From Nemertoderma westbladi (lineage: Eukaryota; Animalia; Xenacoelomorpha): DNA of 64,000 bases. The translations under genes and the position numbers were made by a program. The number at the start of each line of letters is the position of its first letter. Positions within the stretch are counted from its first letter, which is position 1. The notes beneath the pieces are model-generated. The model worked only from the letters and a program-made list of their open reading frames with translations. It had not been told where the DNA came from and searched no databases. Positions 1,274 through 60,404 of the stretch are shown piece after piece. The stretch spans positions 26,858 through 90,857 of the forward strand of contig JAUCBJ010000315.1 of the NCBI GenBank assembly GCA_032718475.1, read 5' to 3'.

Positions 1274-1380
1274 AAACTAAACTAATTTATTTTTATCAAC
1301 TAAACTAACATTATTCACAAGAGATATAAAAAGTTAATAACATTACAATACAAATTATAAATAACTTGGTTAGAACTTTA

Positions 1381-29250: not shown

Positions 29251-29354
29251 TAACAAAAAGATTATTTATTGAAGAGATACTTGTAATAAAAAATAAATAC
29301 TTTTAATAAAATAAACAACATATTTTAAATTATAAGTAAAACCAAAAAGAGAGA

Positions 29355-31410: not shown

Positions 31411-31791
31411 CAGAGTCAGTCAGAGTGTGTTGTGTGGGTTCGCAGGAGGTTGAGTTTCGCCCTTTTGCGGTCAGCCCTCCTGTGCCTTCGCGGCTGTCGA
31501 TCAGCTAAGCGGCGTCCGGTTCGGTGCGACGTGGAGTCGATCATCCACAGCAATGCCGACTGCAACCCGGCGTAGGCGACTGTGGATAACAACCCTCCAA
31601 GTTTGGAGGACAGTCAGACAGTAACATATACTAACTGTAGTATTAATTTAACAGTGTATATTTGTCTGGTTGTTGGTGGTGGTTGCTATGCGATCTGATG
31701 TGCATCAGCTGTTTTTACAAGCTTTAATAATAAATATACGGCTATAGTTTTCCAGGTAGGATAGTAAAAAAAAAAAAAAAAAAAAAAAAAA
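31411..31791 (+). mobile_element. 5'-truncated CRE-clade element with poly(A) tail in the minisatellite
   Basis: VVWVRRRLSFALLRSALLCLRGCR resembles VRRRLQFGLLRATSLCLRGGR of the full-length ORF; AATAAA at ~31729; A26 tail at 31766-31791. Confidence 0.85.
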
Positions 31792-32106
31792 CTACAGTAC
31801 TACTACAGTACTACTCCAGTACTACTATAGTACTACGTACAGTACTACTACAGTACTACAGTACTACTACAGTACTACTATACTACAGTACTACTACAGT
31901 AGTACTACAGTACTACTACAGTACTACTACAGTACTACTGTACTACAGTACTACTGTACTACAGTACTACTACAGTACTACTACAGTAATACTACAGTAC
32001 TACTACAGTACTACAATACTACAGTACTACTACAGTACTACTACAGTACTACTACAGTACTACTACTACTACAGTACTACTACAGTACCACTACAGTAGT
32101 AAACAG

Positions 32107-33333
32107 TGTTCGCGCTTTCAGACCTTTGGCAGTTTAACCCACCAAATTAAGATGTCTTCTAGATATTAAATCTGTTTTTTAGTCTATGACAAGTATTTGA
32201 TTCACTACACTAGTCGAAACCAATCCGTGCGCGACCATTCACCCGCTGGATATTCCCGGGAGATTGGGTTCGACGGTTTAATTTTTATTGCTATGTAAGC
32301 CTAATGTATTATTCGACTGACAGTATTATATAATCTCTGACAATATTATTCACCTTCGGTAATATTAACAGTTCCTTTAGGACGTGGCGCTTTATCTATA
32401 TAAACAGAGTTATGACTTAAACTACTCACAACGATATGGCTTAATTATAATTCACATATATGGCGCATTCTTTAGGAATTGCTTCTTTAACAGACTCACT
32501 CATACACTATGCTGCACAATACTGCACACTAATATGCCAATCTTCACTGATTTTAGTCACATATAAAAGGAACACAGGCTGACTCATGTAGGGTCTATCA
32601 AATAACATTAGATTCACTTCAAACCACTTTAACATAAGTCACAATCGTTATTGGTAACCTTTCTCTCTTACCTTCGGTATATCAAGAATATTGGGTTGCG
32701 GGGTTATTTATCGTTATTCCAAATATAATAATTCATCAACCATATTATGAAGAACTGACAGTAAATAGCAGTAAACACAACAACTGAACAGTTAGGTAGA
32801 TCGGTACATCAGTACCGGTATGTCAGCAGTGAGATATTTACAGAGATATTCAAGTTAAAGGATATATGCCCTTTATAATTAAACCTACTAGTGTAAGACT
32901 AAAAAGCAGTACAGCACAAAAAACTTCCAAGCCGTTCTTTCTTTGGCTCAAGACTGAATGTAAACACTGCACATAGGCATTGCGTCATTTCTCGGAAATT
33001 TTCTGTACAAGGAGCCACAAAAACGCTCTCATTGGCTGACTGAACTGAGAGACGCCGTAGAACAAAGGAAATCAACACGTATGAATGTCAGCTGTTAACC
33101 GTAGTCATAGTAACTACTGTTCAAGAGTAGCTATCACCCCTTTGCGTCACGAATTGCCATAGAATCATAAAATATGCCTTTCACAGTACACATACGGAGG
33201 AAATAGGTCTTAGATCCTCTAAAAACACCGATACAGCAATAATACGGTCTCTTACACTTATTAAATCAACTACAGAGTATTTTAATGTAAAAGATAATAA
33301 AAATAACGGGGCAATTCAGCAAAGGCTTTTACA
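32107..33333 (-). repeat. 3' LTR
   Basis: Direct repeat of 46384-47610; one substitution noticed by eye (32534 A vs 46811 C). Confidence 0.97.
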
Positions 33334-36133
33334 CCGCTCCCAGAAAATGGGATTTTCAGTCTATAAAATATAAAAATCACAGTTTCTAAAACATAAAGAT
33401 ACTCTAAACAGTTAGTCTTTCTTACGCAGACGGCGTTTCGCAGTTTTTTGAGGCTAGCAAGAGTCTTTTCTCTTTGGGGGGAGCCACTTTACTAGGAGGG
33501 CCATAACTCCTGGGTGAAGGGTGCAATATGATTGCATCAGAAGGTGTAGGATTGTGGTCGAGGTATCTGCCGTTTCGATATGCTTCTCCTCGAGCTGATT
33601 TTCCTCCGCTCGTAGCTGGATACGTTCATCCAAAACTCTCGCAGAGAATAGGATCGTCCAAGTTCGATAACTTCTTAGAGATTCTGGATTTCCCAATCGA
33701 ATTGAGATAAGGCCAATTCGTTTATCGATTGGACTCACTGTTATAACTTACGTTTATCTGAACAAACGCAGGTTTCCTTTTTGATCTTTATAAAATAGCG
33801 TTTAACTCGTTTCGTACAACGCTCTCCTTCCCCTTGATGAGGGGTTGTATCGCGTTAAACGTGGACGACCATACGGTTGGATAGTGATATTAGGTGTCCG
33901 CGTCACAATCCGGCTAGGTAAGATGGGCGGCTAGCTAGAAATCACTGTCGGAGTGTTACCGATTAATTGTTAGGGTAGCACTAGATCTTTGAACAGTGAA
34001 TACAGTCCGCGAGGATCCGCGACACCACCAAGATCGCAGGTCTGAGGTCCAACTAAGGAATGAGGAGGTTTGACCGAGTATTCCGGGACTCTGATCGTAG
34101 GTTTACTCCAGGATCGTTCGAGCCGAGTGAGCATAGGTGATACTTCAACAAGTTTCGGTTTACGTGGATGTTTATGTCTTTCCGTTTATTAGTTGGGTCT
34201 AGGGCATTTATCGTAATAATACCAAAGACGCACGTCTGGTAGGGTAAACGCGGGTGATATTTATTTGTTGTTACAATGCTTCTATCAAGAATTCCAAATA
34301 TACGTTGGAGTTACCGCGTCCATTTGTTTCTTAAGTGTCTTTTCTTTCGAGTCGATTTCGAATAGAATTTTCGCATTCGAATTTCCGTTTATGGTTCTGA
34401 CTCCGCTGGGCAGGATATATGGTCGACATAGTCCATATTGTGTAAATCGATAGGATGACAAGACCATCTTCTATCAACTCCGTCATATCTGCTATATATG
34501 AGTTTATCCATATTATAATGAGTTTATATTTAGGCGAGCGGGCGTCGCTGCCTACCCCAATCAACCCCGGACAGTACGAGATCCTCAGCGCCGATGTGTC
34601 GTCGCCGCTGTACTTTCGCCAACGACGTAGCCGCACAACGACAACGACAACCGGCACAAGTCACTCAACTGTCCGTCCCAAAGGCTTAGATGTACTTCAG
34701 GTTTCCTTGGAGAGTTAGGTTACTTTTACGATTGCGACTAGCTACTGTAAACACACCTTAGCAGTAACATTCACCTATAAACTCACAAATACCACACACA
34801 CAACTTGTCACAAATTACACACACTCGGGTCACTTGTCCGTTAGTCAATGCCTTCCAGAATGTCACTGTATTATTATGTATCCTTGGATACTATCAGTGC
34901 ACTATTTATTCCCTATGCTATTCAATGGGACAAGTTTTCTATTGTTCTTTTAACTCAATTCTAATTCTAGCGTGGTTGTTGCTATGGTGACATTATGCAA
35001 AGCTAGCGGTAGAATTAGGGTGATTCCAATGCATACAGATCTGGGATGTTATTTAATAGTAATTCTTTAATAGTCAATGCTCTGTTTTATACATGACTTT
35101 ATGAATTTTATCGGCTATTGACTATGTTTGGGAGACTTTCACACACTCATACGCATGATAAGATAAATCTCCGCTCCCTTGATCTATTAATTAATGGAAT
35201 TTTGGGAACTTTATAAATTGCGTAAAAATGGCAATTTATTAAATTCATTAAAAGGCATGAATTTAAATTGATTCCCTGAAATTTTATTATTTGATAATTA
35301 AATGGACATATTTGGATTCCAGAACATGTCTAGGGACACAAGATCCTTAATTCTAAGAAATTGTCTCTTTAAGAATATCGGTAAATGCTACGATATCTTA
35401 ATTGACTAGAATTGTTGAAGATCTGAATTTTACAGATTTTGATTTATTAGATTTGCAAATATTAAATAATTAATATTTGAGATGGGCACCGATTTATTCC
35501 AGAACTTGTCTGGGGACGTTAACCACTGATTCTAGAATTTGTCTTTCAAGTATATCGGTGGGTGCCGCGATATCTTAATCGACTAGAATTACAGATGGTC
35601 AAAGGGTTTAACAGATTTATTTTGCGTTATACGCTACTGTTAAAGGGACATCACGCTACTATATGTATTATTTAATATACGGTATGAGAGCAATATCGCA
35701 CGAAGCAATGTCAGTGTGAAGAGGCAAGTCGTTTCCAAGGTCTACCCAGAGCTTGGTTTAGCCGAGACACGAGGATCTGAACTTTGCATTCCTAATACTC
35801 TGCCTACCAATAATACTTAAATATAGTAGTGGCTTTATTGTACTTTAATAAGTACAGACATTTCATCTTACTGTAGTTACGTATTTATAATAGAATACGA
35901 GCAGTAAGGAAAGAGAAAATAATTATTTCTCGCCGTCGCACTAAATATAATATAAGTAATTACGTACGTAATAAACACGAATATATTGCACTATTCTACA
36001 AAATAATCGCTAAATAATATTCTACTAAATTAAATAAAACGATTATAATAAAATTACATAGTAATACATACATAAATATAAAAATAATAATAGAATATAA
36101 AATAATAGAGTCACACGCCCACTCCGAACGATA

Positions 36134-39100
36134 TTAAGTTGGGGAGTCCCTAGATGTCGGTTGGATTAGGGAAGTGGTCGTGGGAAGAGTTTCTTGCCTT
36201 CCATAGTTTCCGGAGAGCTCTCTGTCTCTTTCCAGTAAACATAAACGTCCCACTGGGCGATTGAGCTGTTGAGTCTCAAAGACTATCCCTGGTTTCTTAA
36301 AGTTCCGCCGCATGACGACGAGCTCTACTGATCGCACCAAACCATCGCTCGAGATATAAGTCTCGATGATACGTCCTGTTTGCCATCGCTTACGTGGGAG
36401 ATCGGGGTCCACAATAAGCACCATGTCTCCAGCGCTGACGTTTTCTTGCTGCGCAAACCACTTAGTTCGAAGTTGTAGAGTGGGCAGGTAATGTTTCTCG
36501 AAATGGTCAGCGAAACGACGGGATAGCAACTGCATAAGTTGCCAGGTTCGACGGCAGTACTCGTCTCCGTCTGTGATCTCCGATTGCGGGAGCATGGCTA
36601 CGGGTTTCTTCAGTAGGAAGTGCGCGGGTGTTAGCGCTTCCAGGGAATCCGGATTTGAAGAGACTGGCATAAGCGGTCTTTCGTTGAGATAGGCGGCGAT
36701 TTCCTCCATTAACGTCCGCAATAGTTCGTCGGTGAGATAAGCGCGACAAGGCACAATAAAGTGGAACGCAGTCTTCACGCTCCTGATCAATCTCTCCCAA
36801 CTTCCTCCCCACCAAGGGGCGTCGGCGGCGTTGAAGGTCCAGCTAGACGCTGTTATCCTTAGCTGATCGTCCACCTGTCTTTTGTTCCAGTCCTTTACGT
36901 AAGCTTGAATTTCGTTGTTGGCGCCAATGAAGTTCGTTCCCTTATCCGATCTCATCGTGTTACTGGTTCCGAAGCGGGCGATCTGTCGTCGTAAACTCAA
37001 CACGAAGCTGTTGGTGGATAGATCGTTTACCATATCGAGATGGATAGCTCTACAAGTCATACAAACGAAGATGACACACCATCTCTTGACTATAGTCCGG
37101 GCACGATATACTTCAATAGGGCCAAATAAATCCACACCGGTATTAGTAAAGGGTGGTTCATAGAAGCTTACTCTTTCCCTAGGTAATTCTGCCTCTCGCT
37201 GTGTTAAAGGCCTACTGAATGCTTTCTTACAGGGTATGCAGTTCCTAAGAACTTGGTTCAGAGCCCTACGGGGTTTATAAAAATAGTAGCGAGTTCGAAT
37301 TTCGCTCAGAACTCGTTCTCTACCAGCATGATACAGTTTGCTATGAACATCCACAATCATCTTGATTTGTATCTCAAGATTTCTAATGAGGATGGGAAAC
37401 TTAGTGTCAAAGGATAATGGGGCGTTGGTTAGCCTACCTCCAACACGTATTAACCCATCTATCATGGTACTAGAGAAGCGATCCCTTAAGCGCATCTGTG
37501 GATTTCTTAACAACAGGAAATACTTATCGGAATCCTCATAGCATTGTAGGAGTCTCAGCATCTGTTTGTTGGTTTCATCATGCTCCTGGTAGCTGATCTT
37601 CTCCTTTAGAAACCTGTGGGGTACCTTATATTGGGGAAGATCTTTAACAACATGGACTCGTGCAGATGTTGATGGAGCATCATCACTATTGGTCTTTGTT
37701 CCGGAGTAACGATGATGAAAACATCGTTTCAAATAGGTGACGGCCTTACAGAGCCGATTCCAGGAACTGTAGTGACGTATGGCTCTCTGCAAGAGAGGTG
37801 AGAGTCCTTGCGAGATATCTGGTATTCCAGATTTCCAATCCTTGTCACGGATTTCCAAGACTTCTTTCGTCGTGGCGGTGGGTTTCTGATCCAAAGCATC
37901 ATCTCCGGAAGTAAATAATACAGATAGATCAACCGCAGGTTTAAACAACTTCGATTTACTCGCTCGAGTTTTGGGTTTAACTTTCTCCGCTCCCTTGGCC
38001 TGTCTGATCTCTGCAGTTGTGAGATGGGGTGGCCATTCTTCTTCTTCTCGGTAGAGAAAGTCGGGTCCACCTAACCATTCGGGAGTATTTACCAATTCCT
38101 TTGGAGTCGCTCCTCGGGACGCGATGTCCGCTGGATTAATCGTTCCGGGGCAATGTCTCCATTGGTCCATCGTCGTGCGACTAAGTATGATGGCTACTCT
38201 GTTGGTAACGAAGACGCTGAACTGACAGACTTCATTGGTTATATACTCTAACACGAGTAAAGCGTCGGTCCAATAGACAGTTTTCTCTAACGTATAGTCA
38301 ATCTGTTCGGTTACATTCCGGCCGATGGCTGTAGCGTATAGAGCCGCTTTTAACTCCGCTCGAGGAACTTTCAACTTGTTGTTGATTAATGCCTTAGAAG
38401 TAACCAAAGCGACTTTGATTCCATCCGGAGTTTCCACTCTTAGGTAGGCTACTATACCGATTCCCATATCGCTGGCGTCTCCAAACACATGGAGTTGATA
38501 GGAATACGTAGGGAGAACATGACCAAAATATGAACGGGAAATTATAAACTCCTCGATAGCCGGTAGAGAATCTTCCCATTTCATCCACTGCTTCAGTAAT
38601 TCCCCCTTAAGTGGATCGTCCCATGAGTGGTTTTCAAGCCACATTTGTTGTACCAAACTTCGAGCAATCAATATAACTGGGCTAATAAATCCCAATGGAT
38701 CGAAATAAGTGCTCAGTATACTTAAGCAAATCCGTTTGGTTCGAACAGGATTATCTCGCTGTTTTAGTTGGAAAAACAGGATATCTCTCTCTGTGTCCCA
38801 TTTCAAGCCGAGTGTCTTGGTTTCTGGCAGATCATCTTTGATCAAATCGAGATCTTTCGCTCCGCGATCTTCCGCAGGGATCGACTCCAGAAACTCACGG
38901 GAGTTGCTGGTGAATTTGGTTAATCGAAATCCACCTCTTTTTAAGCACTCTACCGTTCCCTTAGCGACCTCAATGGCTTCCTCAACTGATGGGAGGGACT
39001 TCAGATTGTCGTCCATGTATATGTCTTTCTTGATGTTGTCGATTACTTCCTTAGAGAATGCCTCTCGATTGTCCTCTGCAGTAGTACGCACTACCGAACA

Positions 39101-41805
39101 GGCGTTGGAAGGGCTTGAGATTATCCCAAAGGCCTGGATGGTCATCCAGTACTCCACCGGTTTCTGGTTGAGGTCTCCTTCGGGCCACCATAGAAATCGT
39201 AGGCTATCTCGATCCCTATCCAACACTTTGACTTGCAAGAACATGCCTTCTATATCGGAGGCGAAAGCAATCGAATATTGTCTCAATCTTAAAAGAATTC
39301 CCAACAAAGATTGAAGCAAGTTGGGTCCGGGTAACAATTCAGAGTTAAGGGATTGACCCATGTAAAGAGCGGAGCCATCAAACACTACTCTCACTTCATT
39401 TGGTTTACCGGGTTTAGGAACGTAATGGTGAGTTAAATAATACGTTCTTTCAGTCACAGGTGTTTCTTCCGGTACCCTCTCCGCGTATCCCTTATTAATA
39501 AATTTTTCCAGCTGTGTTTGATACATTGCTTTAGCTGATGAATTAGCCGTAAGGCGTCGATGGAGTTGCGCGATTCTTTTTTCCGCCAAAGGTCTGTTAT
39601 TGATGAACTTCGGTTCTTTCTTGCGGAAAGGTAAACCGACTTCATACCTACCTTGATCTTTGAGGAAACATGTAGTTGTCTCTTGGATCTGCTTGGCCCT
39701 TTCCTCTTCCACCGACAAGGCTTTATCGTAGGAATTGGGCTCTACCGCCTCTTGCGTAAAGAATCGTACAGCATGTTCATCCCGAATCTTGGCATTATGA
39801 CGCTCAATGACGTCATTTAACTCGTCGTTATAAGCTTCTCGTTCAGATGGATAGAGAAGTTGACATAAGTTCACTTGGTTTTGCCAAGCCTCGTTTTCCT
39901 TAAGGAGATCGATGGTATTCTCCTCATCAAAAAGCTGGTGAACATCGTCGTTATCTGAGGAGTATGGAATTCCCTCAGTTGAGTTGTCTCCCTCACTGGT
40001 ATCATCTTCCCATTCACTCACCTGGCATACGCTCTCTTGCGGTAGTCTTTCTCTGAGTGTTCTACGGGAAGGGCCAGTAAAGTACCAACCTACTCTAGTT
40101 CTTACCGCATAGGTCTGTAGTGGCTGCGGTTGAGCAGGCCGTTTCTCTAATGTCTCCAGCGCCTCATGCGCGTTTTGGCCGATGAGTATTTGCACTCCAG
40201 GATAATCAGTCTGGAATCGAGGTATGTTAAGATGTTGGATGCTCTCATCCTCGTCCCAATTATAAAGGTCTGCTTGAGTAGTAGCGAAGTTCTTTATAGC
40301 CACCATTTTCACTGACCTTATGCTGTGTTCTCCTAGTTCGTCTTGTGGGGTGGACAACGCGCCTACATAATAATCAGCTGTTATTGTAGATTTCCAAACT
40401 TGCATTATGCCAGACATGTTGAGCTTAGTTTGGAACTTGAGTTGTCCAGCAAATATATCTTCGGCTAGCTCTTTATCGATGAATGTTCCTGTGCTGCCGG
40501 AGTCCAGGAGGGCGTTCACTACATAACTCCTCTTAGGTCCGTGAACCCTTACTTGCACCACAGGAAACTCTCGGATCCCTACATTGGAAGATGTCTCTTT
40601 CCAAGGTGGTTGTCGTTCAGAAGTAGTTACAGTAAAGTCGTTCTCTGGATCCTTTTCATATGTGAGTGCTCGATACACTGCGGTATTTATCATGTAACAG
40701 GATTCGTTTTCGTCGGAGAACTCGTCTGTATAGAATCCTTCCATCTCAGATTGATCAGTGTCGTTCACATCACTGAATTGGACATGTAGCTCGGAATCAC
40801 TTACCTGATTCGGACTATTTCGATCGAATTCAGCGTGCAACAAGATATGATGTTTCGCACCACACTTTGCACACCTTATGTCAGAGAAACAGGTTCGCCG
40901 TTGGTGTCCTTGTCTGAGGCAATTATAACATAACCGCTTATCCCACATGACTTCGCGTCTCTCTGTTAATGATTTCTTTAGAAATTCATCACATCTATTC
41001 AAATGGTGAATCCCGTCGCACAGCGCACATTTTGGTTTGATGTTACTTACCTTATTTTGAGTCACATTGTGTACACTTGCCCTTTCTTCGGGTTTTCTCA
41101 CCTGAATTCTCTTGGGAGACGTGGGAGGAGTTTTTCTTACCTGTTCCCTCCTGTCATTTGTTCGAGACTTAAATTTACTTACCTGATCTTTAGGCATTTT
41201 GTTCACGTAATAAGATCTATCCGTGTCTTTCCCGCTATCTTCTCCTTGAGAAGTCTGGCTTTCGCCGTCATCGGTATAACATACTGGTGTTACCTTTCTC
41301 CTAGAGACGGGTTTTTCACTTACCTTGTTTTCCGGTGTCTTCTCTCGGGACTGCTTGAGGAGTTGCAATTTCACTTCTCCATCCAAGAATGACATGAGAT
41401 CAGCCATGGTAGGGTCTCGTCGTTGTTGTTCCATCATATAAAGTACTTTCTTATCCCAGCGTGTGCCTACCCCACCTTTCGGTAAAGTAGAAGCCACAGC
41501 TCCAATGACCATAGAACTTTGGTATTCATGAGACTTACCTAACCAATCTAATTGTCTACAGATCTCTTGAATCTCATCGGAAAACTCTATTATCCCACTG
41601 CTGATGAACTTTCTGGGCGCTACTAATTTTGCATATAAATATTTAGCGATATTATTCCTATTACCATACCTGATGTTTAGTATATCCCAAACTTGTCTTA
41701 ATCCGTCTGGATGGCCAATAAACTTTAACGCCATTAACTTGGGAGATCCTTCCAAGCACTCGATGAGGTATCTAAGTTTTTCTCCATTAGATAGTTCTGT
41801 ATGTT
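36134..41805 (-). CDS. BEL/Pao gag C-terminus plus pol (Zn knuckles, aspartic protease, RT, RNase H, integrase)
   Basis: CALCDGIHHLNRC, CYNCLRQGHQRRTC, CAKCGAKHHILLH; LLDSGS; RVVFDGS; YMDD; LHVFGDAS; GVDLFGP; RSDKGTNF; GGSWERLIRSVK. The frame is open upstream of the listed ORF start (TELSNGEKLRYLIECLEG). Confidence 0.95.
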
Positions 41806-44229
41806 ATCTTTGTAATATTCATTAAAAGGTAACCATTTCATCTCATCTCCATTGAACTTGACGATCTCTCCAACCTTTACCGCTTGCCGGGCTTCGGTTC
41901 TAGCCATTTGACGCGTAAAACTTTCTTGGGCCATTGTGCTATTTAATATCGAGTTATCGGTATATAAATTTCTCTGATTATGATCAGTTCTATAGGGAAT
42001 ATCATTATCAACAGGTCTATAATTACCCTTAATAGGGTTCACTATAGGAGTTTCTACTTCGCTAGCAGTATATATGCGTGTAGGCTCCACACCTTGCGCA
42101 TGCAATACTTCAGACCTAACAGGTTGACACATTGTTACAGAGGGTGGTGGTATACCCTTTTGGGTATTTACTAATTTATCGCGTTCTAGCGCGATACTTT
42201 GCTGCACTTCTTGCAACTCTAGCCTACTTTCCCTTACTGTGCCCTTGAATTGCTGGACAGTCTCCTGCATCTGCCCGAGCAGGATATCCATCCCCCGCCG
42301 TCCCCTGTCCACCCATTCGACCGCCGAAGCGGGAGTCGCCAACGTTGTAGCGGGCGGACGAGGGACAACGGGCGACAAATTATGAATATTTCGCTCGGGG
42401 TCCAGGACCTGAACTGTCGCCTGGGCAGTTCTACTGGGCACAGGTAGCTTAGTGCTATGTAGAGGGAATTTAGAAGTAGCTTCAGGGAGCACAGGTGTGT
42501 CTATCACCGAAGGGGTGATTTCAAGAACAGGCCTAATTATTTCAGGCTCATCTACTATAGTAGGGAGTCTTTCTATTGTAATTATTTGGTCTGTGGGCTC
42601 TGTACTACCTAAGTTGGTGTTATTTAGTTGCCTTCTAACAGCTGGAGGCAAATCAGGCAATTTCTGCCGGTGGAATGTTCTTTTACGTCTGCTTAGGCGA
42701 GATCGATTTCTTCCGCCTTCAGTGTCGGTGGTATCGCCTTCCTCAGATGAGGTATACCCTTGTCTTTTGGGAGTAGATCGACTCATCATCTGCATATTAC
42801 TAGCTGCTAACTGTTTACTGAAGTCGTCTTGCTTCTCTTGAAGATTTTCCAACTCCAGTTGGATGATCTCTTCAGCCGCTTTTCGTTCTACTTCCGCCAC
42901 TGCTGCCGCTTTTGCCTCTGCTGCTGCCGCTTTTGCCTCTGCCGCTGCCGCTTTTCGTTCTGCTTCCGCCACTGCTGCCGCTTTTGCCTCTGCCGCTGCC
43001 GCTTTTGCCTCTGCCGCTGCCGCTTTTCTTTCTGCCTCTGCCACTGCTGCTATCTTTCTGTCTTCTATACGCTTTTTCCTTACTTGTTCTTCCCTTTCTC
43101 TAGCGATGCGGAGTTGTTCATCGAATTTAGCTTGGTTCGCCGCTAACCTATCCACATCAATCGCATCTAACACAAGTTTGGCTCCTTCGCTATTAGGGCT
43201 AAGTCCCTCTAGCCTTCTCCTCAACTCTTCATCTCCCACAAAACGCTGATAGTCTGACAGATAGATATCAATGGCATCCTTCTTATGCGGTTTCTCTGCC
43301 GTCGCTTCACTTTCCACTTGGGAAAAAGTAGCGTCTGTTGATTCTCCATGGGTTGAGCGCTCCTCCAACTGAGCCTTCCACTGAGCTGCTCCTTGAACCT
43401 GGCGACTCACCCGTTGAAACCAAGTCTTTACGGCAACTTGCAACGACGTGTCTTGCCTTCTTTTAGAAGCCTCCTCAAAGGCGGATAAGATTAGCCTAAT
43501 CCGCAGAACTCTTTCTCTAACTTGATAAAGCAGCGATCCCTGCTCTTGAGGTCCTTGAGGTTGTTGAAAAATTTGCTTTTCTATTCGCTCCATAGAGCTG
43601 AAGAATCCCTGTGCGTATCCGGCTGCGGACCTCTTCCACACAGCTGGATCGATGGTTTCCTTGGCTACTCCCATCCGGTGTATGTCTTCCCAGGCAGCTT
43701 CTGATAAATCAAACGGGAGTCCGGGTCCGGGGAAGTTCCATTGCGACTCGACAATAGACTTCAGTTCTTCACTAGTGTAGCCCGCGTAGCTATCTCTAGT
43801 TGACCGTTGACTTCTCGCCCAATCGATCTGGTGTTCTTCTACCGCGATCAATAACCCAGCGAGCACGGCTGCAGGAAGGATGAGAAGGGGATCCGTATAA
43901 ACCGCATCCGTCATCTCTGCTCCGCTCTCGGGTGTCAGCTCTACAGTATCCTCACTACTGGAGCTGCTGGGCCGCTGAGGAATAAGTTCTTGACTAGCGG
44001 GTTGTTGCTGTTCCGCTGCTTGTTGGTCCCGCTTGACCTGAGCTCGAGTGCCTATGATAGACCTACGATGTTGGACTAGCCTAGGTTCTGTTATTACTAC
44101 TGGAGGGATGACCTTCCTCACAGTGGGAGGTGAACTGGATTTACGACCAGACGTTTGTACGTCTCTATCTGAGTCGCAGATAGTGACATCTAATAAACTG
44201 TCTGACAGGTTCTGCTTAGTATCAGACAT
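41734..44229 (-). CDS. BEL/Pao gag N-terminal part (coiled coil, Ala/Glu/Lys repeat), out of frame with the downstream ORF
   Basis: 831-aa ORF ending in the start of the Pao gag domain (FNGDEMKWLPF); homologous to the ORF starting at 62773. Confidence 0.88.
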   Translation of the reverse strand: MSDTKQNLSDSLLDVTICDSDRDVQTSGRKSSSPPTVRKVIPPVVITEPRLVQHRRSIIGTRAQVKRDQQAAEQQQPASQELIPQRPSSSSSEDTVELTPESGAEMTDAVYTDPLLILPAAVLAGLLIAVEEHQIDWARSQRSTRDSYAGYTSEELKSIVESQWNFPGPGLPFDLSEAAWEDIHRMGVAKETIDPAVWKRSAAGYAQGFFSSMERIEKQIFQQPQGPQEQGSLLYQVRERVLRIRLILSAFEEASKRRQDTSLQVAVKTWFQRVSRQVQGAAQWKAQLEERSTHGESTDATFSQVESEATAEKPHKKDAIDIYLSDYQRFVGDEELRRRLEGLSPNSEGAKLVLDAIDVDRLAANQAKFDEQLRIAREREEQVRKKRIEDRKIAAVAEAERKAAAAEAKAAAAEAKAAAVAEAERKAAAAEAKAAAAEAKAAAVAEVERKAAEEIIQLELENLQEKQDDFSKQLAASNMQMMSRSTPKRQGYTSSEEGDTTDTEGGRNRSRLSRRKRTFHRQKLPDLPPAVRRQLNNTNLGSTEPTDQIITIERLPTIVDEPEIIRPVLEITPSVIDTPVLPEATSKFPLHSTKLPVPSRTAQATVQVLDPERNIHNLSPVVPRPPATTLATPASAVEWVDRGRRGMDILLGQMQETVQQFKGTVRESRLELQEVQQSIALERDKLVNTQKGIPPPSVTMCQPVRSEVLHAQGVEPTRIYTASEVETPIVNPIKGNYRPVDNDIPYRTDHNQRNLYTDNSILNSTMAQESFTRQMARTEARQAVKVGEIVKFNGDEMKWLPFNEYYKDNIQNYLMEKNLDTSSSAWKDLPS

Positions 44230-46371
44230 GACTATGTATACCGTTGAATGTCTACTGCTGTATTACAGTCTGAGTAAGTCTAGTAACTCAGTATTACCTG
44301 CTAGCCTAGTAATTAATTACCGGTACTGCTACTCAGTGTAGCGTGATATATAATATATTAGAATACCGGTATGCTTATAGTATATATAACTATTATTACA
44401 GACTAGGTTTATCACAGAATACCGGTATAATTTTAGCACAAATATATATAAATATATAATAGGCCTATCGGAATACCGGTATACAGCTTACAATTTATAG
44501 TATATATAATTCTGGACTAGAATTAATTACAAGTACCGGTATAATTTCAGCCTAATATTTATAGAAATAAAGATAATAGGCCTATCGTAAATACCGGTAT
44601 ATCAATTATTATAAATAATTGAATTTCTGTATTTTAGGGTTACTTGGTTACTTACTTACTTTATTACCGTTATTTGAGCAGTAGTCCAACTGATATTGAG
44701 ACCTAATTGTTATATGGTAGGCCTACTATTTATAAATCGTTAGATTTGATTTATAATATATATATACCCGTTTTAATGGGTTTTGTCAATGTTTGAAATA
44801 AATGTTATTATTTCTGGGGAGTAATCACTACACAAAGCGGTGCGCTTTCAGTGAAGTGTTACGTACAGGACACTAAAACAAATAATACTAATTTACCTAA
44901 GTTACTTAATACTACAAATTACGTACAATTCGGGTTGAGATTACAATCTCTAAATAAACACAAAAATTTACAAAAACAAATACGAATTTTTAGGGTAATT
45001 TTACAAGAAGGCTACAAACCAGCCTAACAAAGGGTTAGAAAACCGGTTATTACAGCGGACAGGGTACTACGGTATTTGAAATAATAAGTAGTAGTAAATA
45101 CACTGCGTTGTCTAGATAGGAAAATACCACCGCCTGACGACCTATAGCCGTATCGCTATAGGTTCTACGTTATGTATCACGGAGTGTTCCTACCTAGAAG
45201 TTAATAGAGCTAATCGAATGTGCCTATCAACCACTTTACAACACAAATATAATGCCTACAATAATTACTTCGGAAAGTACTATACACTAAACCCTAAATT
45301 AGGTACGAGTACTTGTATAACAAATAATCAGTAGTTAAATATACTTGAACAGCTAAAAGAACCACGGCATCTGCTGGAGTGACCGATGCACAAAATCACC
45401 AGTCTTTACCTACGCCGAGCAGCCCGTGTAGTACCGAGGTTAATTTAACTATAGCGGTATGTATAACAAACACAATTACTGTAGGAACAAACTTGGGGAC
45501 TGAATGTTGCGGATAATCGCATAAACTCTGAATAATAAATATTACGCTACGCGTACAAACTACTCAAACAAAATACAGACCGAACACTGACAGACTACTA
45601 TCAAGCCTAAACAAACTACGGTATATGCAGACTCCGAAATGATTAGGGAGTATGCGCTCTAACCCAGTAGTGCGACTTATTCTTTAGTCGGGGGTTTACC
45701 TTACAGCGTTCGCTGCCCCTACTGCCTAATCGTACTTAATCGGACAGATGATCTACACACGCGGCAATCCGTTCAGACCTAATAACAGCCAGACAACTAT
45801 CCAGCCTACAAATTATCTAAATAAAATTATACGCTACCCGTACAGACTTACACAAACAAAGTACAGACTAAACGATGGCAGACTACTCTCAAGCCTAAAT
45901 AAACTACAGGACATGCAGACTCCGAAATGATTAGGGAGTATGCGCTCTAACCCAGTAGTGCGACTTATTCTTTAGTTGGGGGTTTACCTTACAGCGTTGC
46001 TGCCCCTACTTCCTAACCGTACTTAATCGGACAAGTGCTCTACACACACTGCAATTCGTTCGGACTTAACAGCAATCAGACAACAGCTCAGCCTACAAAT
46101 TGTCTGTACAATCTGATCAGGTTTACACGCCTTCTGTTCAATACTGGCCTACAAATAAATAAAACTGACAGAAATAGGCCTAAGTAAAATCCCAATAAAA
46201 ACCAGGCGTCCCCGATTAATTATTAAGACCTACCGGCATATATAATCAAATCGAATAATACTGCTGTACTTATACGGAAGTAGGTACCGGTCCGGATGAT
46301 CAGGCAGTCAGGCCTACTGGTTACCGGTCGACCGGTACTTTCGACTTTATTGCTTACTGCAATAAAGAAGC

Positions 46372-46383
46372 TATATCCTTTAA
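46372..46383 (-). other. Non-tRNA primer-binding site, complementary to LTR positions 47132-47143
   Basis: Sense strand TTAAAGGATATA abuts the 5' LTR end, has no TGG, and is the exact complement of TATATCCTTTAA in the LTR. Confidence 0.8.
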
Positions 46384-47610
46384 TGTTCGCGCTTTCAGAC
46401 CTTTGGCAGTTTAACCCACCAAATTAAGATGTCTTCTAGATATTAAATCTGTTTTTTAGTCTATGACAAGTATTTGATTCACTACACTAGTCGAAACCAA
46501 TCCGTGCGCGACCATTCACCCGCTGGATATTCCCGGGAGATTGGGTTCGACGGTTTAATTTTTATTGCTATGTAAGCCTAATGTATTATTCGACTGACAG
46601 TATTATATAATCTCTGACAATATTATTCACCTTCGGTAATATTAACAGTTCCTTTAGGACGTGGCGCTTTATCTATATAAACAGAGTTATGACTTAAACT
46701 ACTCACAACGATATGGCTTAATTATAATTCACATATATGGCGCATTCTTTAGGAATTGCTTCTTTAACAGACTCACTCATACACTATGCTGCACAATACT
46801 GCACACTAATCTGCCAATCTTCACTGATTTTAGTCACATATAAAAGGAACACAGGCTGACTCATGTAGGGTCTATCAAATAACATTAGATTCACTTCAAA
46901 CCACTTTAACATAAGTCACAATCGTTATTGGTAACCTTTCTCTCTTACCTTCGGTATATCAAGAATATTGGGTTGCGGGGTTATTTATCGTTATTCCAAA
47001 TATAATAATTCATCAACCATATTATGAAGAACTGACAGTAAATAGCAGTAAACACAACAACTGAACAGTTAGGTAGATCGGTACATCAGTACCGGTATGT
47101 CAGCAGTGAGATATTTACAGAGATATTCAAGTTAAAGGATATATGCCCTTTATAATTAAACCTACTAGTGTAAGACTAAAAAGCAGTACAGCACAAAAAA
47201 CTTCCAAGCCGTTCTTTCTTTGGCTCAAGACTGAATGTAAACACTGCACATAGGCATTGCGTCATTTCTCGGAAATTTTCTGTACAAGGAGCCACAAAAA
47301 CGCTCTCATTGGCTGACTGAACTGAGAGACGCCGTAGAACAAAGGAAATCAACACGTATGAATGTCAGCTGTTAACCGTAGTCATAGTAACTACTGTTCA
47401 AGAGTAGCTATCACCCCTTTGCGTCACGAATTGCCATAGAATCATAAAATATGCCTTTCACAGTACACATACGGAGGAAATAGGTCTTAGATCCTCTAAA
47501 AACACCGATACAGCAATAATACGGTCTCTTACACTTATTAAATCAACTACAGAGTATTTTAATGTAAAAGATAATAAAAATAACGGGGCAATTCAGCAAA
47601 GGCTTTTACA
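46384..47610 (-). repeat. 5' LTR
   Basis: Direct repeat of 32107-33333; CCAAT (~47310) and TGACGCAA (~47280) on the sense strand. Confidence 0.97.
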
Positions 47611-48504
47611 AACAGATAAATATATATTAGCCTGCTGCATTGCAGCTGCACAATGAGATTCTATCATGATGGCTAACAAAAATATTTGTACCACCACCAA
47701 GCAATCTACAATTGGCTTCCTGTAATGCTGCGTGCATTAACAATGCATCAAGATAAAATTGCACCTTCACAACTCCAGATCTTACTTTTTCGATCACCGA
47801 AAATAAAAGACATATCGCCGACAAACGAAAAACAACATTTTCTATTTGAGCAATCTACTAAATATTAAAGTTATAAAATGATGTCGCCATAATTTTTTAT
47901 GTTTTTTATACATCGTTTAAAGCGCTGTAAAATATAGTCACACAAAAGAAAGAAGGACGACAGAAAAAGGCCAACCCCTTTCGGAGTGAATGTTGAATCG
48001 AACAAAGGTTTACATAAAGGTGGCATTGGGCCAAATCATAATTGTTCGTTGGAGCAAAATTATTTGTTAGTCGAAATAATATCTGGGGCCGTTTAAACAG
48101 CAGTAAAGATAGGAAAATTCAAACTCATTAAACCTAAACAAACTACATAATAGTGGCTGACATTGTACCGGTAGTTTGGTAGGGGCTGTCTGCCGACACA
48201 CAACAGGACGTCGCCCCATTGACTGACCCTATAGATAGGCCTAAAGGCTAATTTGTGTTAGGTTAGGCTAGCAGTTTACTTGAAGGGGAAAAGGTTGAGT
48301 GTGTTAACCACCCCGATATATTTTATGCTTCATTTTCTCGGGTTAAACTTACGTGGGAAAAATACGTTTGATATTTTTTAAAACTGTGTCAACGGCCGGC
48401 CAGTACGTGTATGCAATTCTGTGTTTCGTTGCCATTAAATCACACAAAATTTAAACATTTCTTATCTTTAAGTTATCTTGAAATTAATATGTGACAAAAT
48501 GTGA

Positions 48505-48690: not shown

Positions 48691-51600
48691 TTACCACATT
48701 GGAATTAAATTAGATTTTTATTCAGCTGTTGGTCCATTGAAACACCTCGCTAAGGAATTGTTTTGCTTCCAATCAGTAAAGTGAAATTTTAAATCCTCTC
48801 CATTGGTGCGGTTTTACATTATTGAGAATAATTAGTGATACAAATTGTTGTTTCATTAGATGGTTTGAATAAAAATAAACATTTGCTCAGGTTCCAGAAA
48901 TAACAACAAAAATGTATCCTTATTAGCGCTGGTGATATCCTCAGAATGGCGCCAAAAAGTACCACGTTACGGACTCATGTCTAAGTTGAAACGTAAGTAA
49001 CAATTTAGAGAAAACATGGACGGTGTTATGCAAAAGGGTGTTATTCCACATTTTGTCGAAATTGAGTTTTTGGTATCATTCGATAGAGGAAAATGTAATC
49101 TACCTAATTAATGAGATCGATCCTATTGCCCAATAATATGAGGAAATTCATTAAAAATACGAGAAAGTTAAGCCACAGTTTTGATTTGTGATTAGTAAAA
49201 GAGTGTTAAACCACAAATAATATTGCAAAAAAAATTTAAACCACATAATAATTGTGTGGCTTGACATCTTTTTGCAAGTATGACACCTTTTGACAATTTA
49301 ACGTTTTGCCAAATATGAAGTTTTCAAAAAGTGTTAAAGCCACATTTTTATCAATATTTCGGAGAAAATGCTATATTCTAGCACAAAAACTTGAAAAATA
49401 CTTTAATTTTCCTAAATGTTTTCTTATAAAAACACAACAGTATCTGGATAATTCAACAACGATCACACAGGATGTTAAAAACTTTGATATCGATTATCTC
49501 AAATTGAACTTTTGTGGCAATACCCTTTTGCATAACACCGTCCAAAGTATGTTTTAGTAGTGAGTGAGTTCGAGAGTGACTCACGCCTATTGAGTAATTT
49601 AGACATTGTTCTATGGGGAGAATGCCCGAGAATCACATTAATTATGACAATGTATTATTGTTCACCATATAGTTCTTTTAGTGACAGCAATTAGTTCAAT
49701 GAAAGACAGTAGAATATGAGAGAGTTTAATTTATTAAATTTAAATAATTTAATAAAATTACGTAGATCATTGTATGAAAAGGTCCTATTAAACGTTAAAT
49801 CAACGTTTATAAGCAAAGCTCACTCGCTGCGCCCGCTTGGTAAGAACAAATCACAACTCGGTGAATTCATTTCTTGTCTCAATGTTAAAATATGCATTAA
49901 GGGAAAGGATCAGGTTACAGTTGCACGTTATTCTAACCAAAACAATAAACGAAATTGCGGAGCAGTCATAAATAACTACCACTATTTTCAAAGAATATTT
50001 AGAGCCATTATTTACACCCAATTAACTCGGACCCCAACAGACAGACAGACACCAACGTTCTACCTGAACCTACAGATTAACCGAGGTTTAAACAGTCCCC
50101 TGTTGCGACACACTTCTCCAGATAATTACTCCCCACAGTGCAGAGAGAGTTAAGGAGCCACACGCCTCCCTCCCTAAACCCTAACTGTAACAGACAATGT
50201 CCTCTTGAAGAAGTTCACACATTATAAGTAGGAGGAGGTCCATCCTGTTTGTGGGTTTGGGCCGAGCGAGTTAGCGGTTTGCGATGGACCCATAGAATCT
50301 ATTGAGTTTGCAAACAATTAACCCGTATTTGTAACTGTGCCCGAGTCGCATGTCCCTTATCTGTGAGGGGTATTAGAGTGTTAGAACGGGCTGCGGAACC
50401 CAAGAGCTTGTTCTATATCTGCGGGGGATTTATCTCGAGTTGAGGTTGGCCACAAGAGGAAGGCGGTTGTTTCCGTAAATAATTATTCCGATTATTCTTC
50501 ACAGAACTCGGCTGTATGCGGTGTTGGACGTTGGTGTCCAGGTTATTATGTATCAATTCAGTTTGAAGGGATTAAATTCGATTTTATCAGAGTAAATCAT
50601 TTATAACAATCTATACATTATGTATTTATAAAGGAGACCCAAATTACTTTTTCTGACTCCCTACGATCGCACTATCAATGGGATATCCGCAGTAAAGCAC
50701 TCTCATATCTTGTGTTAAAGGGGGAAATGAACACAAATACCAATTATGTGATTACTGGATTTAAAAAATATAAAAAAGGAATTAATTTAATTTAAAACAT
50801 TAAGGGAAAGGAACATGTTACAGTGGAGATCTCTCTAACCAAAATAATAAAGAAAACTTTATTTAATATGCGACCATTTATTTAATCTACATAACGCAAT
50901 CACCGAATAATATAGAGGTGTGGAGGAAGTGGTGGATCCAAGGGAAGGGGGCAGCTTCCCCCTCCCCCAGCATTTGAGGGGGGCCAACCCCACACCCCCC
51001 CCCCCCCCCCTCCCCCCACTCTAAGCAAACAACACTGTAATGATGTGGACCGAGCCACGAAGTAAGGTGAGCCTTTGCAAACATAGCACTGTAATACGTT
51101 CGTCTATCATATGTTGCTGTTGGCTAGATTTACGACTTTATTAACTGATCAAAATGCGGATTCTTCCAGCAAATTTGTTTTTATGAAATATTTTAAACGG
51201 ATATAATTCTCGCTACGCATGTTGTACAGTAAGGCTGCCTAGAAGTCAAAAGTCGGCGAGTTGTGAGATTTCAAGAAATCTTCATTGATGGACATTAAAA
51301 GTGACAAAGAAACAGCCACTTACAGCGTCGACTGTTTAGTTTAAGCTTCGCTTACAATTATCCGACCCTGTCAATTAACAAACTCAATATAAGACCATCT
51401 GTTCCATTTTAATACATCCTAGAGATTTTCGTAAGGGCCGCCCATTTAATACCCCCTGCTAAACGCCCAGCGGACAGCGCCCTATAATTCAAGTGATATA
51501 ATTACTCAACTTTCTTTGCAACATTCTTATACAAATAAAACCCAGTCAGTCGGCCGTTGTGTATAGGGGGACACAGCAGTATGACGACTTGGGTCGGGCC

Positions 51601-51854
51601 CTGTTACAGTGTAACTGTAGAGGCATCTATGGGAGAATTCAGTTTCATAGAATATACATTGTCTTCTTATAAACTTTTGTACACTTTCAGTGGTTATAGA
51701 TATAGCAGCAAGTGCATACACCAAGCACACACGTGTTCAGTAAAAACACAGTCCAGAATGGCCATACTATAGAACAATATAGATCAAAGTACAGCAAGAA
51801 ATGGAAGAGGGAGAAGATTTCGCAGCCAGACAATAATGTAAAGACCCATAACTA

Positions 51855-52250
51855 TGTGCCGGCTTGTCGACAAAATTGCGCCGCCACAACTCCCTATCAC
51901 CCATGACATTTGCTAGATCATCCGCATCGTCAAGGCCAGTGTCCTTTAAGATGCATCTCAAGAACGTCATGGGCTGTCCAGGTCCACCATGCTTATTCAC
52001 TCCATGAGGCTGCCAAAGCACAATATTATGTACTGGTTGGTCCACACGACGAAATCAATGTCCTGCAAAGCGGAGGCGGCTTTATTCTAGTGTCAAGCTT
52101 GGGGGAACCAGTGAAACACCTCCAATGTTATATAGTGTCTGATTGGAGATGTGTGCATTGTGTACTTGATACAGTGAACCCGACGTTGCATTATTGTGAA
52201 TGTGCCATCCAGAGATTTGGTTTCCTCAGCAGTTAGAGCCCAGCATTGAC
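51855..52250 (-). mobile_element. Degenerate RTE LINE fragment
   Basis: Paralog of 20095-20480. Confidence 0.85.
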
Positions 52251-53856
52251 TCCAGCAAGCACACACCCCAGGCACCGAAAGAACAGCACTAAACACACAT
52301 AGTACCACCAGTACGCAAGTTTATACAGACACAGCACTTTTGAGAGAGACAGTTATGAGAGAATCCCCAACTAGAAACATTGGTAATCGATAAGAGAGCA
52401 ATAGAAGCAATTGAAGCGTAAACCTCGTTAATGTACCGATAACAGAATACCGTAACATTAGGCCTAAGTTTAGCGACATAACTCCATATCATTGTAGGCT
52501 CACTCTTAGCTACAAGAAGGGCCTTAGTAATAACAGATGGGTTGACAGTTGATTTACGATGAATTAACCAATTATGAAGAGGAGGGGCTGGTGGCCTCAT
52601 CTGACGTAAGGTAGCCAATTACAGCGCCAGTTATATCCGATGGATGTTAGCTATCGTTATCAAGATTAAAATGGATGGGGTGGATGCGACTTTTAATGAA
52701 TGGTAGAGATTTAGTTTTCGGGACATAAAAATGATCCTGATAATATTTCGTAAATTATTAAGTAATTTAAACATGACTTATGTTAATCAAACGCTATTGC
52801 AATGCTAGTTGTTAATGTACGAGTTTCTAGTTAGTGCCGTTACATTAAATAATACCAAACAGATCCAACATAATTAATTTTTTATGAGGAGGGGATCGGT
52901 TATACGATAATGGGATTTCTGATGTAGATAAGTCTAGCACTACTACTATAATCGACCTGCTGCATTGCAGCTGCACAGCACATATATATACAATGCTGCC
53001 GTAACAAAAATATTATTCCAACCACCATGCAATCGGGAATATCGTACAGCCCAAACACAGCGTTACCCTGCAATCACATTTTACCAGCGATGGTAAGCAA
53101 TCAAATAGCTTGATCGTAGGGGGGGCCTACCGATAAGTAGTTTGGATAAAAGATTATAAATAAGATCATAATAATGATCTTGCTATTTGATAGCCAGCTG
53201 TTGGGAGGAATCATGAGAGTCATCAGCTATTGACATTCCGGAAACATATATAATTATTATTGTTAACATGCACAGCTCTGTGTTGAGGATCGAGAGGAAG
53301 GGATAGTTCTGAAAGAGGACAATTACCGAAAGGTAACGAAAGCTATTGAAAAGGTTAAAGCGGGGGCGAAAACTATCCATTCAATGATAGGGGGTACAGT
53401 TCGCACTTTCAGCGTTCCATATCATTCATAAACAAAAAATATGTGGGGTCTAATTAAAATAATTGCTGTTTAATTTCAAATAAACCTTCGCAAAATATAC
53501 ATTAACTGATACAGTAGGCTACAGCAGTAGTAAGGGTAGTTTTAGTACAGTGCTAGGCTAGGCAACTGCAATAGCAGTATTGGCTGATTGAACACCAGAT
53601 CGGCTGACCGACGGGCAGACCGACTACCGTCTGACCACGGGGCAGCGCATTATTACTGCATTAAGGACGAAGGATTGATTACAGTACAAACTTTGTACTG
53701 GTAATCAAGGGACGGTGCAGTGTTGTGGTGAGGCCTACAGGTTTTACTATCGCCGTTATCAGTACCGGAATCAGATATCGCTTTAAAAGTATTATATAGT
53801 TTGAAATGTATAGACCATTCTCAATGCCGAAAATAATTAATTATATGTGTAAATCC

Positions 53857-57642: not shown

Positions 57643-57816
57643 ATTCGATTATTTTTAAAGATTCTTGTATATTTAATTTTTTGAAATATTTAAAAGGACA
57701 ACTTTTGAAATATTTGTTTCCACTTATCTAATACTGAATGAACAAAACTACAGTATAACATGTACTTTGCACAAACAAAGGAAGTGACTTTTTGTGAGTC
57801 CAAAACCACTCTTTCA

Positions 57817-58485: not shown

Positions 58486-60392
58486 GAACTCTAGCCGATT
58501 TTTAATACAAATATTTAGCTAAAAATATCTCAATTGTTTCTTTGGCATTGGTACACCTTGGGTACCCGTAGTTTGACCAACTTTTTTCATATGTAACAGT
58601 CTTTTATCGTGAGGGTTTTTTTATAACAAATATTTGACGTTCTGGCAGTAGGAATAGTAGCTAATAATTTTGATTTTTGCTAGCTACCGGTAGTGTAGTA
58701 CTTTTTTTAGTTAGTGAAAAAAATTAAATTTGAAAATTTTTTTATAATTTTTTCTTGTGAAAATGACTTTTTCTCATGAGTATTTTTATTCTAGAATAAA
58801 TATTTTACAATCTGTCAGTAAGATGGTAGCTAGTAATTTCGATTTTGTGTTAGCTAGTACTTTTTATAAGATATTAAAAAAATTAAACTTATTTAGAACA
58901 TCAAACATAACTGTGAATTTATGTGCTTTAAGTTCTAGATTCAAAATTCTGCAGTTTCTATGGGGTCTAATCATTTAAAATGACCATTTCTTTTAATAAG
59001 GATTTACCGGTATATGGTGATTCGACTGTACTATTTAATTTTCTTCAAAAAATGTTCTAGAACAAAAAATTGTGGTCTAGAACAAAATCTTGTATCTATC
59101 ATGATAGCTAACACATATTCTATCACATTTATAAAAAAAATAGCATAAATAGCTAGTATAACAAATCTGGTCAATGGGTACCCAAGGTGTACCAATGGGT
59201 ACCTGTAAAAGCTTTTGCTGAATTGTCCGGTTATTTTTCCTTATTTTTCCCGTAAAATACTCTGTAGTTGGTTTACCAGGCATAAAAAGGCCGTTTCCTT
59301 GCTGTACTGGTGTTTTAGCGGACATAAAAGCTATTTCTTCTGTATTTGTACTTTAGAGGACATAATCCGTAATTCCGTGACGTAAAAGCTCGATACTCTT
59401 GAAAACAGTGTCGCTACCATGACGACGGCTAGCAGCTGATATTGCCACGTCGACGTTTCTTTGTTTCTTTGTTCTCTCGTTGTTCAGGTTGACCAATCAG
59501 AGCGTTTGTTGTCTCTGTGTTGGAGGTGTATACAGAAACTCAGTAGTTCAGTGTTATGTTTTGCCCAGAGCCTAAGAACCGGCTTTTGGCACCTCCGTGT
59601 TTTCAGTTTTTAGTCCTACACTAGTAGGCTTAATTATAAGGACATATATCCGTTATCTGCATACTGCATACTGCAGTACTGCATACACTGCATACTGTGT
59701 AACACTGTGCATACTTTTATATTGTTATACTGCTATTTACTGTCAGTTCTTCATAATATGGTTGATGAATTATTATATTTGGAATAACGACAAATAACCC
59801 CGAAACCCAATATTCTTGATATACCGAAGGTAAGAGAGAAAGGTTACAGATAAATGATTGCGACCTATGTTGAGTGGTTTGAAGTGAATCTAATGTTATT
59901 TGATAGACCCTACATGATTCGGTCCGTGTTCCTTTTATATGTGACTAAAATCAGTGAAGATCGGCAGATCAGTGTGCAGTATTGTGCAGCATTGTGTATG
60001 AGTGAGACTGATAACGAAGCATTTCCTAAAGAATGCGCCATATATGTGAATTATAACTAAGCCATATCGTTGTGAGTAGTTTAAGTCATAACTCTGTTTC
60101 TATAGATAGAGCGCCACGTCCTAAAGGAACTGTTAATATTTCCCGAAGGTGAATAATATTGTCAGAGATTATATAATACTGTCAGTCGAATAATACATTA
60201 GGCTTACATAGCAATAAGATTAAGCCGTCGAACCCAATCTCCCGGGTATATCCAGCGGGTGAATGATCGCGCACAGATTGGTTTCGACTAGTGTAGTGAA
60301 TTAAATACTTGTCATAGACTAAAGGTGATTTATTATCTAGAAGACATCCTAATTTGGCGGGTTAAACTGCCAAAGGTCTGAAAGCGCGAACA

Positions 60393-60404
60393 ATAACGGA
60401 TATA
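60393..60404 (+). other. Non-tRNA primer-binding site, complementary to LTR positions 59645-59656
   Basis: ATAACGGATATA abuts the LTR end and is the exact complement of TATATCCGTTAT. Confidence 0.8.

Follow-up and report, generated by a model that had tools for sequence, protein, structure and literature searches.

Introduction

Self-priming of reverse transcription is described for the Tf1/sushi group of LTR retrotransposons (PMC6317226, PMC4600332, PMC10085805). In Tf1, the transcript's initial 11 bases anneal to its primer-binding site (PBS), with RNase H cleaving between bases 11 and 12 (PMC7175516), and in Tf2 a downstream start gives a primer-less mRNA, only the LTR start yielding the replicating RNA (PMC5341516). 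The same mechanism has been predicted for the copia TAR lineage and for plant Tcn1 (PMC6317226), and one proposal holds it to be ancestral (PMC3601003). For the BEL/Pao family, the ICTV description of the Belpaoviridae gives an 18-base PBS for tRNA-Arg or tRNA-Gly and a length of 4.2-10 kb (PMC8742986), in agreement with the premise of a first-pass annotation of the present locus that characterised BEL/Pao elements are tRNA-primed. The motif set of the family includes a triple Cys-His box, LLDXG and LIG in the protease, YXDD in the reverse transcriptase (RT) and DAS in RNase H (PMC554778). A term search of the BEL/Pao surveys PMC554778, PMC3118150 and PMC6238403 returned no mention of PBS, tRNA or priming, and the portions consulted of PMC5443660, PMC3286476 and PMC6934838 contain no self-primed BEL/Pao element. 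The first-pass annotation had named no described case, and the literature searched likewise held none, most subscription papers, Repbase reports, GyDB pages and supplements lying outside that search. The C. elegans element Cer7 has reportedly been proposed to encode its own tRNA-like primer, which would be a different kind of self-supplied primer within BEL/Pao.

A recent BEL/Pao element in the window

The window, by which we mean the whole 64-kb stretch of DNA analysed, contains a recent BEL/Pao LTR retrotransposon of 15.5 kb on the minus strand, hereafter E1. Its LTR ends were set by a 1,227-bp direct repeat (47610-46384 and 33333-32107), by the TG...CA termini and by a 5-bp target duplication. 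The features of E1 are as follows.

46384..47610, minus strand: 5' LTR, 1,227 bp, TG...CA
32107..33333, minus strand: 3' LTR, a single difference from the 5' LTR, with its own copy of the 12-mer at 32866-32855
47611..47615, minus strand: target-site duplication, 5 bp, upstream copy
32102..32106, minus strand: target-site duplication, 5 bp, downstream copy
41734..44262, minus strand: gag open frame, 842 codons from stop to stop
36134..41803, minus strand: second open frame, with the capsid remainder (DUF1759), triple Cys-His box, protease LLDSG, RT YMDD, RNase H DAS, integrase and DUF5641
33334..33341, minus strand: PPT, a purine-rich tract adjoining the 3' LTR
46372..46383, minus strand: PBS, the exact complement of the LTR 12-mer, adjoining the LTR end, without TGG
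47132..47143, minus strand: predicted self-primer, 12 bases (TATATCCTTTAA)

The near identity of the two LTRs, together with the 5-base target duplication, indicates that the insertion is recent. The assignment to BEL/Pao, already made in the first-pass annotation, is borne out by Pfam profiles (Peptidase_A17 at E 5e-36, DUF1759, DUF5641 and an integrase zinc finger), by the motifs and by PF05380, which is present in all 120 homologues listed out of 1,342. The nearest homologues are ~40-45% identical, and the named ones among the matches listed are cnidarians, echinoderms, fish and a nemertean. The triple Cys-His box, the LLDSG/LIG protease, the YMDD RT, the DAS RNase H and the terminal position of the integrase correspond to the BEL/Pao motifs in PMC554778, and the LTRs with TG...CA, the target duplication and the PPT complete the structural picture of the family. 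No chromodomain occurs among the Pfam matches of E1, which places it outside the Tf1/sushi group as defined by Ty3/gypsy chromovirus affinity and an integrase chromodomain.

Several other traits of the element deserve a record. The reading frame switches from the gag frame to the downstream frame within the DUF1759 capsid domain (41803-41734, minus strand), which may reflect a programmed shift, a mutation or an assembly error. The non-coding arms are unusually long, with a 2.1-kb leader (46371-44263) and 2.8 kb before the 3' LTR (36133-33342), both on the minus strand. The leader contains a 290-bp tandem duplication at 45527-46105, the units of which recur in a second copy of the element at 60762-61341, and no env-like frame was found in 33334-36133, where the longest frame has 109 codons. 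In the region 31791-32098, E1 sits at the border of a tandem repeat of 8/11 bases that is preceded by a 26-base A run.

The primer-binding site is complementary to a segment of the LTR

The first-pass annotation had reported that the 12 bases at 46383-46372 are the exact complement of those at 47143-47132, and both the coordinates and the 12/12 match proved correct. The match starts at the first base past the CA of the LTR and ends at exactly 12 bases. TGG, the mark of a site for a tRNA CCA end, had been described as missing after the 5' LTR and is absent from the first 40 bases in both E1 and the second copy, E2. Neither copy has the 18-base PBS for the 3' end of tRNA-Arg or tRNA-Gly that the ICTV gives for BEL/Pao, a family that is itself delimited by phylogeny; what is found beside the LTR is a PBS complementary to an LTR segment in place of a tRNA CCA end, the arrangement characteristic of self-priming. 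ARAGORN predicted no tRNA gene in the 64-kb window, and Rfam gave no match over 46200-47700 at E up to 1.

The PBS/LTR match is real and well above chance. Among 10,000 LTRs simulated with an order-2 Markov model, a match of at least 12 bases at offset 0 arose once for E1 and five times for E2, rising to 6/10,000 and 10/10,000, respectively, when the best of offsets 0-5 was taken. When mock PBSs were scanned along E1, 2 of 14,257 positions gave a 12-base match to the LTR, the real PBS being one of the two. The 12-mer of E1 is 83% A+T.

A second copy retains the match through compensating changes

E2 lies on the opposite strand and leaves the window.

59204..60392, plus strand: 5' LTR of E2, 1,189 bp, 81% identical to that of E1
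59645..59656, plus strand: predicted self-primer of E2 (TATATCCGTTAT), two changes relative to E1
60393..60404, plus strand: PBS of E2 (ATAACGGATATA), with both compensating changes
47050..47131, minus strand: hypervariable segment of E1 directly past the 12-mer, 39% identity to E2, public-contig depth 10-30 times below that of U5
47144..47199, minus strand: E1/E2-conserved block (73%) immediately upstream of the 12-mer, containing TATAAA at 47154-47149

Covariation between PBS and LTR among family copies had been suggested as a check in the first-pass annotation, and the two copies that make up our set, E1 and E2, do show it. Their PBSs differ at positions 1 and 5, and the LTR segment of E2 has both complementary changes, which again gives 12/12. 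E1 and E2 do not differ over the 62 bases that flank the PBS (34 before and 28 after), and U5 differs in 35 of 662 aligned columns (5.3%); from this divergence we estimate by hand a chance of ~2 in 10,000 for two exact compensations with no other change. Crossed pairs of primer and PBS between the copies would form 7 paired bases at -8.1 kcal/mol, as compared with -12.4 and -14.1 kcal/mol for the own pairs. These data support a PBS that changes in step with its own LTR, as seen in the two compensating substitutions.

The E2-type PBS base is a real variant within the family. At 46379 it accounts for 26% (run X1) and 28% (run X3) of public-contig depth and for none of the depth, itself very low, in X4, with the qualifications that contig depth is not copy number, that X1 is possibly the window's own source, that X5 contigs do not cover this position and that 68 weaker differences were not displayed. 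The same depth is high over 47137-47167 and falls 10-30 times below that of U5 over 47044-47136, so that family-wide conservation ends about where the 12-mer ends. The LTR as a whole is a mosaic when 47610-46384 is aligned with 59204-60392: identity is 62% over the upstream 410 bases, 39% just past the 12-mer and 94% from 47049 on, which looks like an exchange of U3 between subfamilies.

Predicted folding of the 5' leader and signals in the LTR

The following elements were located around the PBS and within the LTR of E1.

46345..46367, minus strand: 9-bp hairpin right past the PBS, identical in E2
46387..46511, minus strand: U5 stems predicted alongside the PBS (46511-46506 with 46392-46387; 46504-46500 with 46400-46396; hairpin 46423-46402), also predicted in E2
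47308..47312, minus strand: CCAAT box ~165 bases upstream of the 12-mer, conserved in E2
47030..47035, minus strand: TCAGTT, initiator-like, also a predicted splice acceptor, lying where E1/E2 conservation resumes and giving a rival start at 47033
46944..46952, minus strand: predicted splice donor within the LTR, conserved in E2, the intron of which would begin at 46948

With the 5' end of the RNA placed at 47143, the 12-bp helix between primer and PBS appears in both the minimum-energy and the centroid fold (z -3.8 against 20 shuffles). Its pair probability is ~1 in E1 and E2 for RNAs that begin 0-15 bases ahead of the 12-mer; for longer extensions the values for E1 and E2 are 0.42 and 0.02 at 20 bases, 0.65 and 0.84 at 30, 0.9 and 0.0 at 50, and 0.02 and 0.0 at 100. 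The folding model thus mildly favours a start within 15 bases, without fixing the start site. When compared with the three-duplex 'pretzel' of Tf1, both copies are predicted to form the central duplex and the U5-side stem, the 3' side of the PBS being taken up by a local hairpin. For a primer supplied by another RNA molecule, two-molecule folds give the helix a probability of 0.48 and 0.31 in a short context and of 0.00 and 0.01 in a longer one. Upstream, the TATAAA block can add to the pairing (-19.9 and -20.2 kcal/mol).

Three candidate transcription starts emerge, at ~47143, at ~47124 and at 47033. Position -30 from 47143 has no TATA; the sole TATAAA upstream, which the first-pass annotation had itself raised as a caveat, lies at 47154-47149, 5 bases before the 12-mer (TATAAG in E2), and a start driven by it is predicted near 47124, beyond the primer. 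In the region of the third candidate, E1/E2 identity rises from 39% to 94%. The poly(A) site is predicted to lie well past these starts, for instance following 46566-46561. A CCAAT box and a second motif had been placed ~140-170 nt upstream of the 12-mer; the CCAAT box stands, but the nearer motif, TGACGCAA at 47264-47257, is only ~115-120 bases upstream and is not conserved in E2. A primer spanning a spliced junction found no match in E1 or E2 with strict splice sites, loose sites giving 8 and 11 bases with poor donors.

Distant relatives pair across predicted splice junctions

Relatives were sought among 80 BEL/Pao loci from metagenome contigs (the best 80 of 533), 19 of which were too short and many of which had no paired LTRs. 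Eight were chosen because their two LTR copies terminate in common at one position, which in L014 was placed by hand after the match had been seen. One of the eight (L054) has a tRNA-type TGG site, and no contiguous PBS/LTR match above 9 bases occurs in the remaining seven. In all of these seven, a PBS segment 0-3 bases from the LTR end pairs over 11-15 bases across a predicted GT-AG exon-exon junction, and none of ~1,550-1,640 control windows was as good for any of the loci. The introns measure 76-186 bases, and the downstream exon always supplies 6-7 of the paired bases.

L003: LTR donor/acceptor 230/306
L007: LTR donor/acceptor 289/452
L014: LTR donor/acceptor 369/473
L017: LTR donor/acceptor 197/273
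L044: LTR donor/acceptor 173/358
L071: LTR donor/acceptor 270/408
L072: LTR donor/acceptor 231/306

Since such a junction is absent as contiguous DNA, the pairing in this group points to an event at the RNA level, with splicing as the predicted step. A poly(A) hexamer lies downstream of the acceptor and primer segment in six of the seven, and TATAWA lies upstream of the paired segment in three of them (by 31, 133 and 165 bases); from these sequence signals, the primer of the spliced relatives likely comes from the 5' leader, although not always from its extreme end. The seven loci sit on seven separate branches of the tree. A wider scan, carried out without controls, gave junction matches of 11-12 bases in four of the ten loci for which the LTR start is known, two of them near-copies of L007 and L044, and in two of 40 split contigs, the majority of which do not include the needed part of the LTR; the 11-12 base matches obtained without a control are those of L010, L019, L021, L028, L030 and L046.

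Boundary-free scans of the relatives for contiguous matches returned many of 10 bases, at chance level. Possible uninterrupted self-primers of 10-11 bases were observed in one clade (L025 at 122-132, L058 at 71-80 and L033 at 92-101); these were picked after inspection with LTR ends that are not fixed, and 1, 9 and 17 of 500 simulated controls, respectively, were as good. The relatives are only ~40-45% identical to E1 in RT/RNase H. In the tree, which has 88 rows and an arbitrary root on L054, the branch of E1 is long (1.24). The exact 31-base LTR-end pattern was found in no stretch of the metagenome contigs, and no relative was present among 25 pattern matches in viral contigs.

Discussion

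We consider it likely that the E1-type family self-primes reverse transcription in some form. By analogy with Tf1, we propose, at a probability of about 0.6, that the primer is cut from the 5' leader of the element's own RNA. The full-length RNA would begin at or shortly upstream of 47143, and its front would fold back so that the 12-mer pairs with the PBS ~750 bases downstream, between the U5 stems and the hairpin. A cut after base 47132, for which the cut by the RNase H domain of Tf1 is the analogue, would leave a free 3' end lying precisely on the LTR boundary. RT would then copy U5 and R and jump to the 3' LTR, whose copy would restore the 12-mer, and plus-strand copying of the primer would, under the standard replication scheme, rewrite the PBS, so that PBS and LTR would change together. 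A start downstream of the 12-mer, whether driven by TATAAA or located at 47033, would give a primer-less mRNA, which is a feature of Tf2 (PMC5341516) and for E1 a proposal by analogy; such dual starts could reconcile the rival start signals. This scheme is supported by the exact match at offset 0 in two copies, the compensating changes, the predicted folds and the junction matches of the relatives. Against it stand the missing TATA at -30, the rival starts at 47124 and 47033, the erratic folds beyond 15 bases and a covariation set of only two copies, as well as the partial correspondence to the three-duplex structure of Tf1, the distance of the relatives, and the long branch of E1 with its lack of a spliced match.

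The element might also self-prime from RNA that starts downstream of the 12-mer (~47124 or 47033), the 12-mer then being supplied by the 3' LTR copy of the packaged RNA, by the processed 3' end of that RNA or by a short transcript made separately from an LTR. The position of TATAAA, the initiator-like TCAGTT on the conservation boundary and the extension of pairing into the TATAAA block would all fit such a source, and if TATAAA serves, as we presume it could, as a variant poly(A) signal, the cut would fall ~17 bases on, at the end of the 12-mer. However, E2 has TATAAG yet covaries, the helix forms poorly in two-molecule folds, polyadenylation would leave the 3' end blocked, cutting of the 3' LTR would lose the R needed for the jump, and in 6/7 spliced relatives the primer segment precedes the poly(A) hexamer; we regard this source as rather unlikely. 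It is improbable, in our judgement, that the 12-bp helix is a long-range RNA structure serving packaging, dimerisation or a translation switch while another primer is used. Folding and covariation demonstrate pairing, not priming, and further conserved stems exist in U5, but the helix stops in both copies precisely on the LTR boundary, the point at which a primer has to end, there is no second primer site, and the relatives retain their match within three bases of the same boundary.

Priming by a host tRNA, half-tRNA or other small RNA, with the LTR match as a by-product, would agree with the tRNA-Arg or tRNA-Gly priming that the ICTV gives for the family (PMC8742986), with the TGG site in one of the eight relatives and with the half-tRNA priming known in Ty1/copia (PMC6317226). 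The two PBS variants would nevertheless call for two such RNAs, nothing would make the LTR follow them, and TGG is absent from the 40 bases in question. Read as an anticodon arm, neither PBS complement shows by eye the tRNA pattern of U33 and a purine at 37 with a fitting anticodon, and a host RNA primer seems to us very improbable. Chance complementarity in A+T-rich DNA, or an accident of copying at the DNA level, could draw on the base composition of the 12-mer and on the one other 12-base match along E1; it is barely credible in view of the boundary position, the two compensating changes and the relatives' matches, which do not exist as contiguous DNA.

With the 5'-leader primer as the preferred reading, E1 is best read as an element that works like Tf1 yet is not a Tf1/sushi element. 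It shares with Tf1, Tf2, Tj1 and the Tf1/sushi group the lack of a tRNA site and a short LTR segment (11 bases in Tf1, 12 in E1) complementary to a PBS by the LTR end, as well as U5 stems, predicted in E1, beside the PBS (PMC7175516, PMC4600332 and PMC10085805). It differs from these Ty3/gypsy chromoviruses in being BEL/Pao, in having no chromodomain match and in the ~750 bases that separate primer and PBS. In Tf1 the third duplex joins the 3' side of the PBS with the LTR (PMC10085805), whereas a local hairpin after the PBS is predicted in its place in E1, whose start and cut are predicted. In common with the Belpaoviridae of the ICTV (Semotivirus; PMC554778), E1 has LTRs, a PPT, the triple Cys-His box, the PR-RT-RH-IN order, Peptidase_A17, DUF1759 and DUF5641; it departs from them in its self-complementary PBS and in its length of 15.5 kb, as opposed to 4.2-10 kb (PMC8742986). 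For the TAR lineage of Ty1/copia (Houba, Osr-1) and plant Tcn1, self-priming is likewise predicted from a PBS/LTR match, of at least 10 bases within 0-5 of the LTR end (PMC6317226); those predictions concern other families, in plants.

What is new here is likely the occurrence of self-priming in the BEL/Pao family, the mechanism itself being known from Tf1/sushi, and an independent origin within BEL/Pao is plausible. Our opinion is evenly divided on a broader proposition, according to which a large branch of marine-animal BEL/Pao would have dropped tRNA priming and would self-prime, the primer arising in many families only after splicing of an LTR intron and here as one uninterrupted 12-mer, with the spliced and unspliced designs switched within BEL/Pao, independently of Tf1. 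If self-priming in E1 is true, it would be present in all three LTR-retrotransposon families, and the question of an ancestral trait or several inventions would be reopened. Such elements would be freed from the host tRNA supply and presumably also from silencing by tRNA fragments directed at the PBS, and the failure of tRNA-based PBS finders on them would be explained. The family, young and abundant and with natural compensating variants, offers a direct test case.

Other contents of the window

The dispersed repeats at 1272-3163 and 28895-31015, and at 19237-20977 and 51024-52740, are 91-96% identical and are probably further mobile elements. A frame of 1,193 codons on the minus strand (22062-25643) has no Pfam match, and a plus-strand frame at 26004-26789 has a weak match to DUF6451, below the cut-off. 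At 56377-57648, on the minus strand, lies a single-frame EamA-like transporter with one homologue match, at 25% identity.
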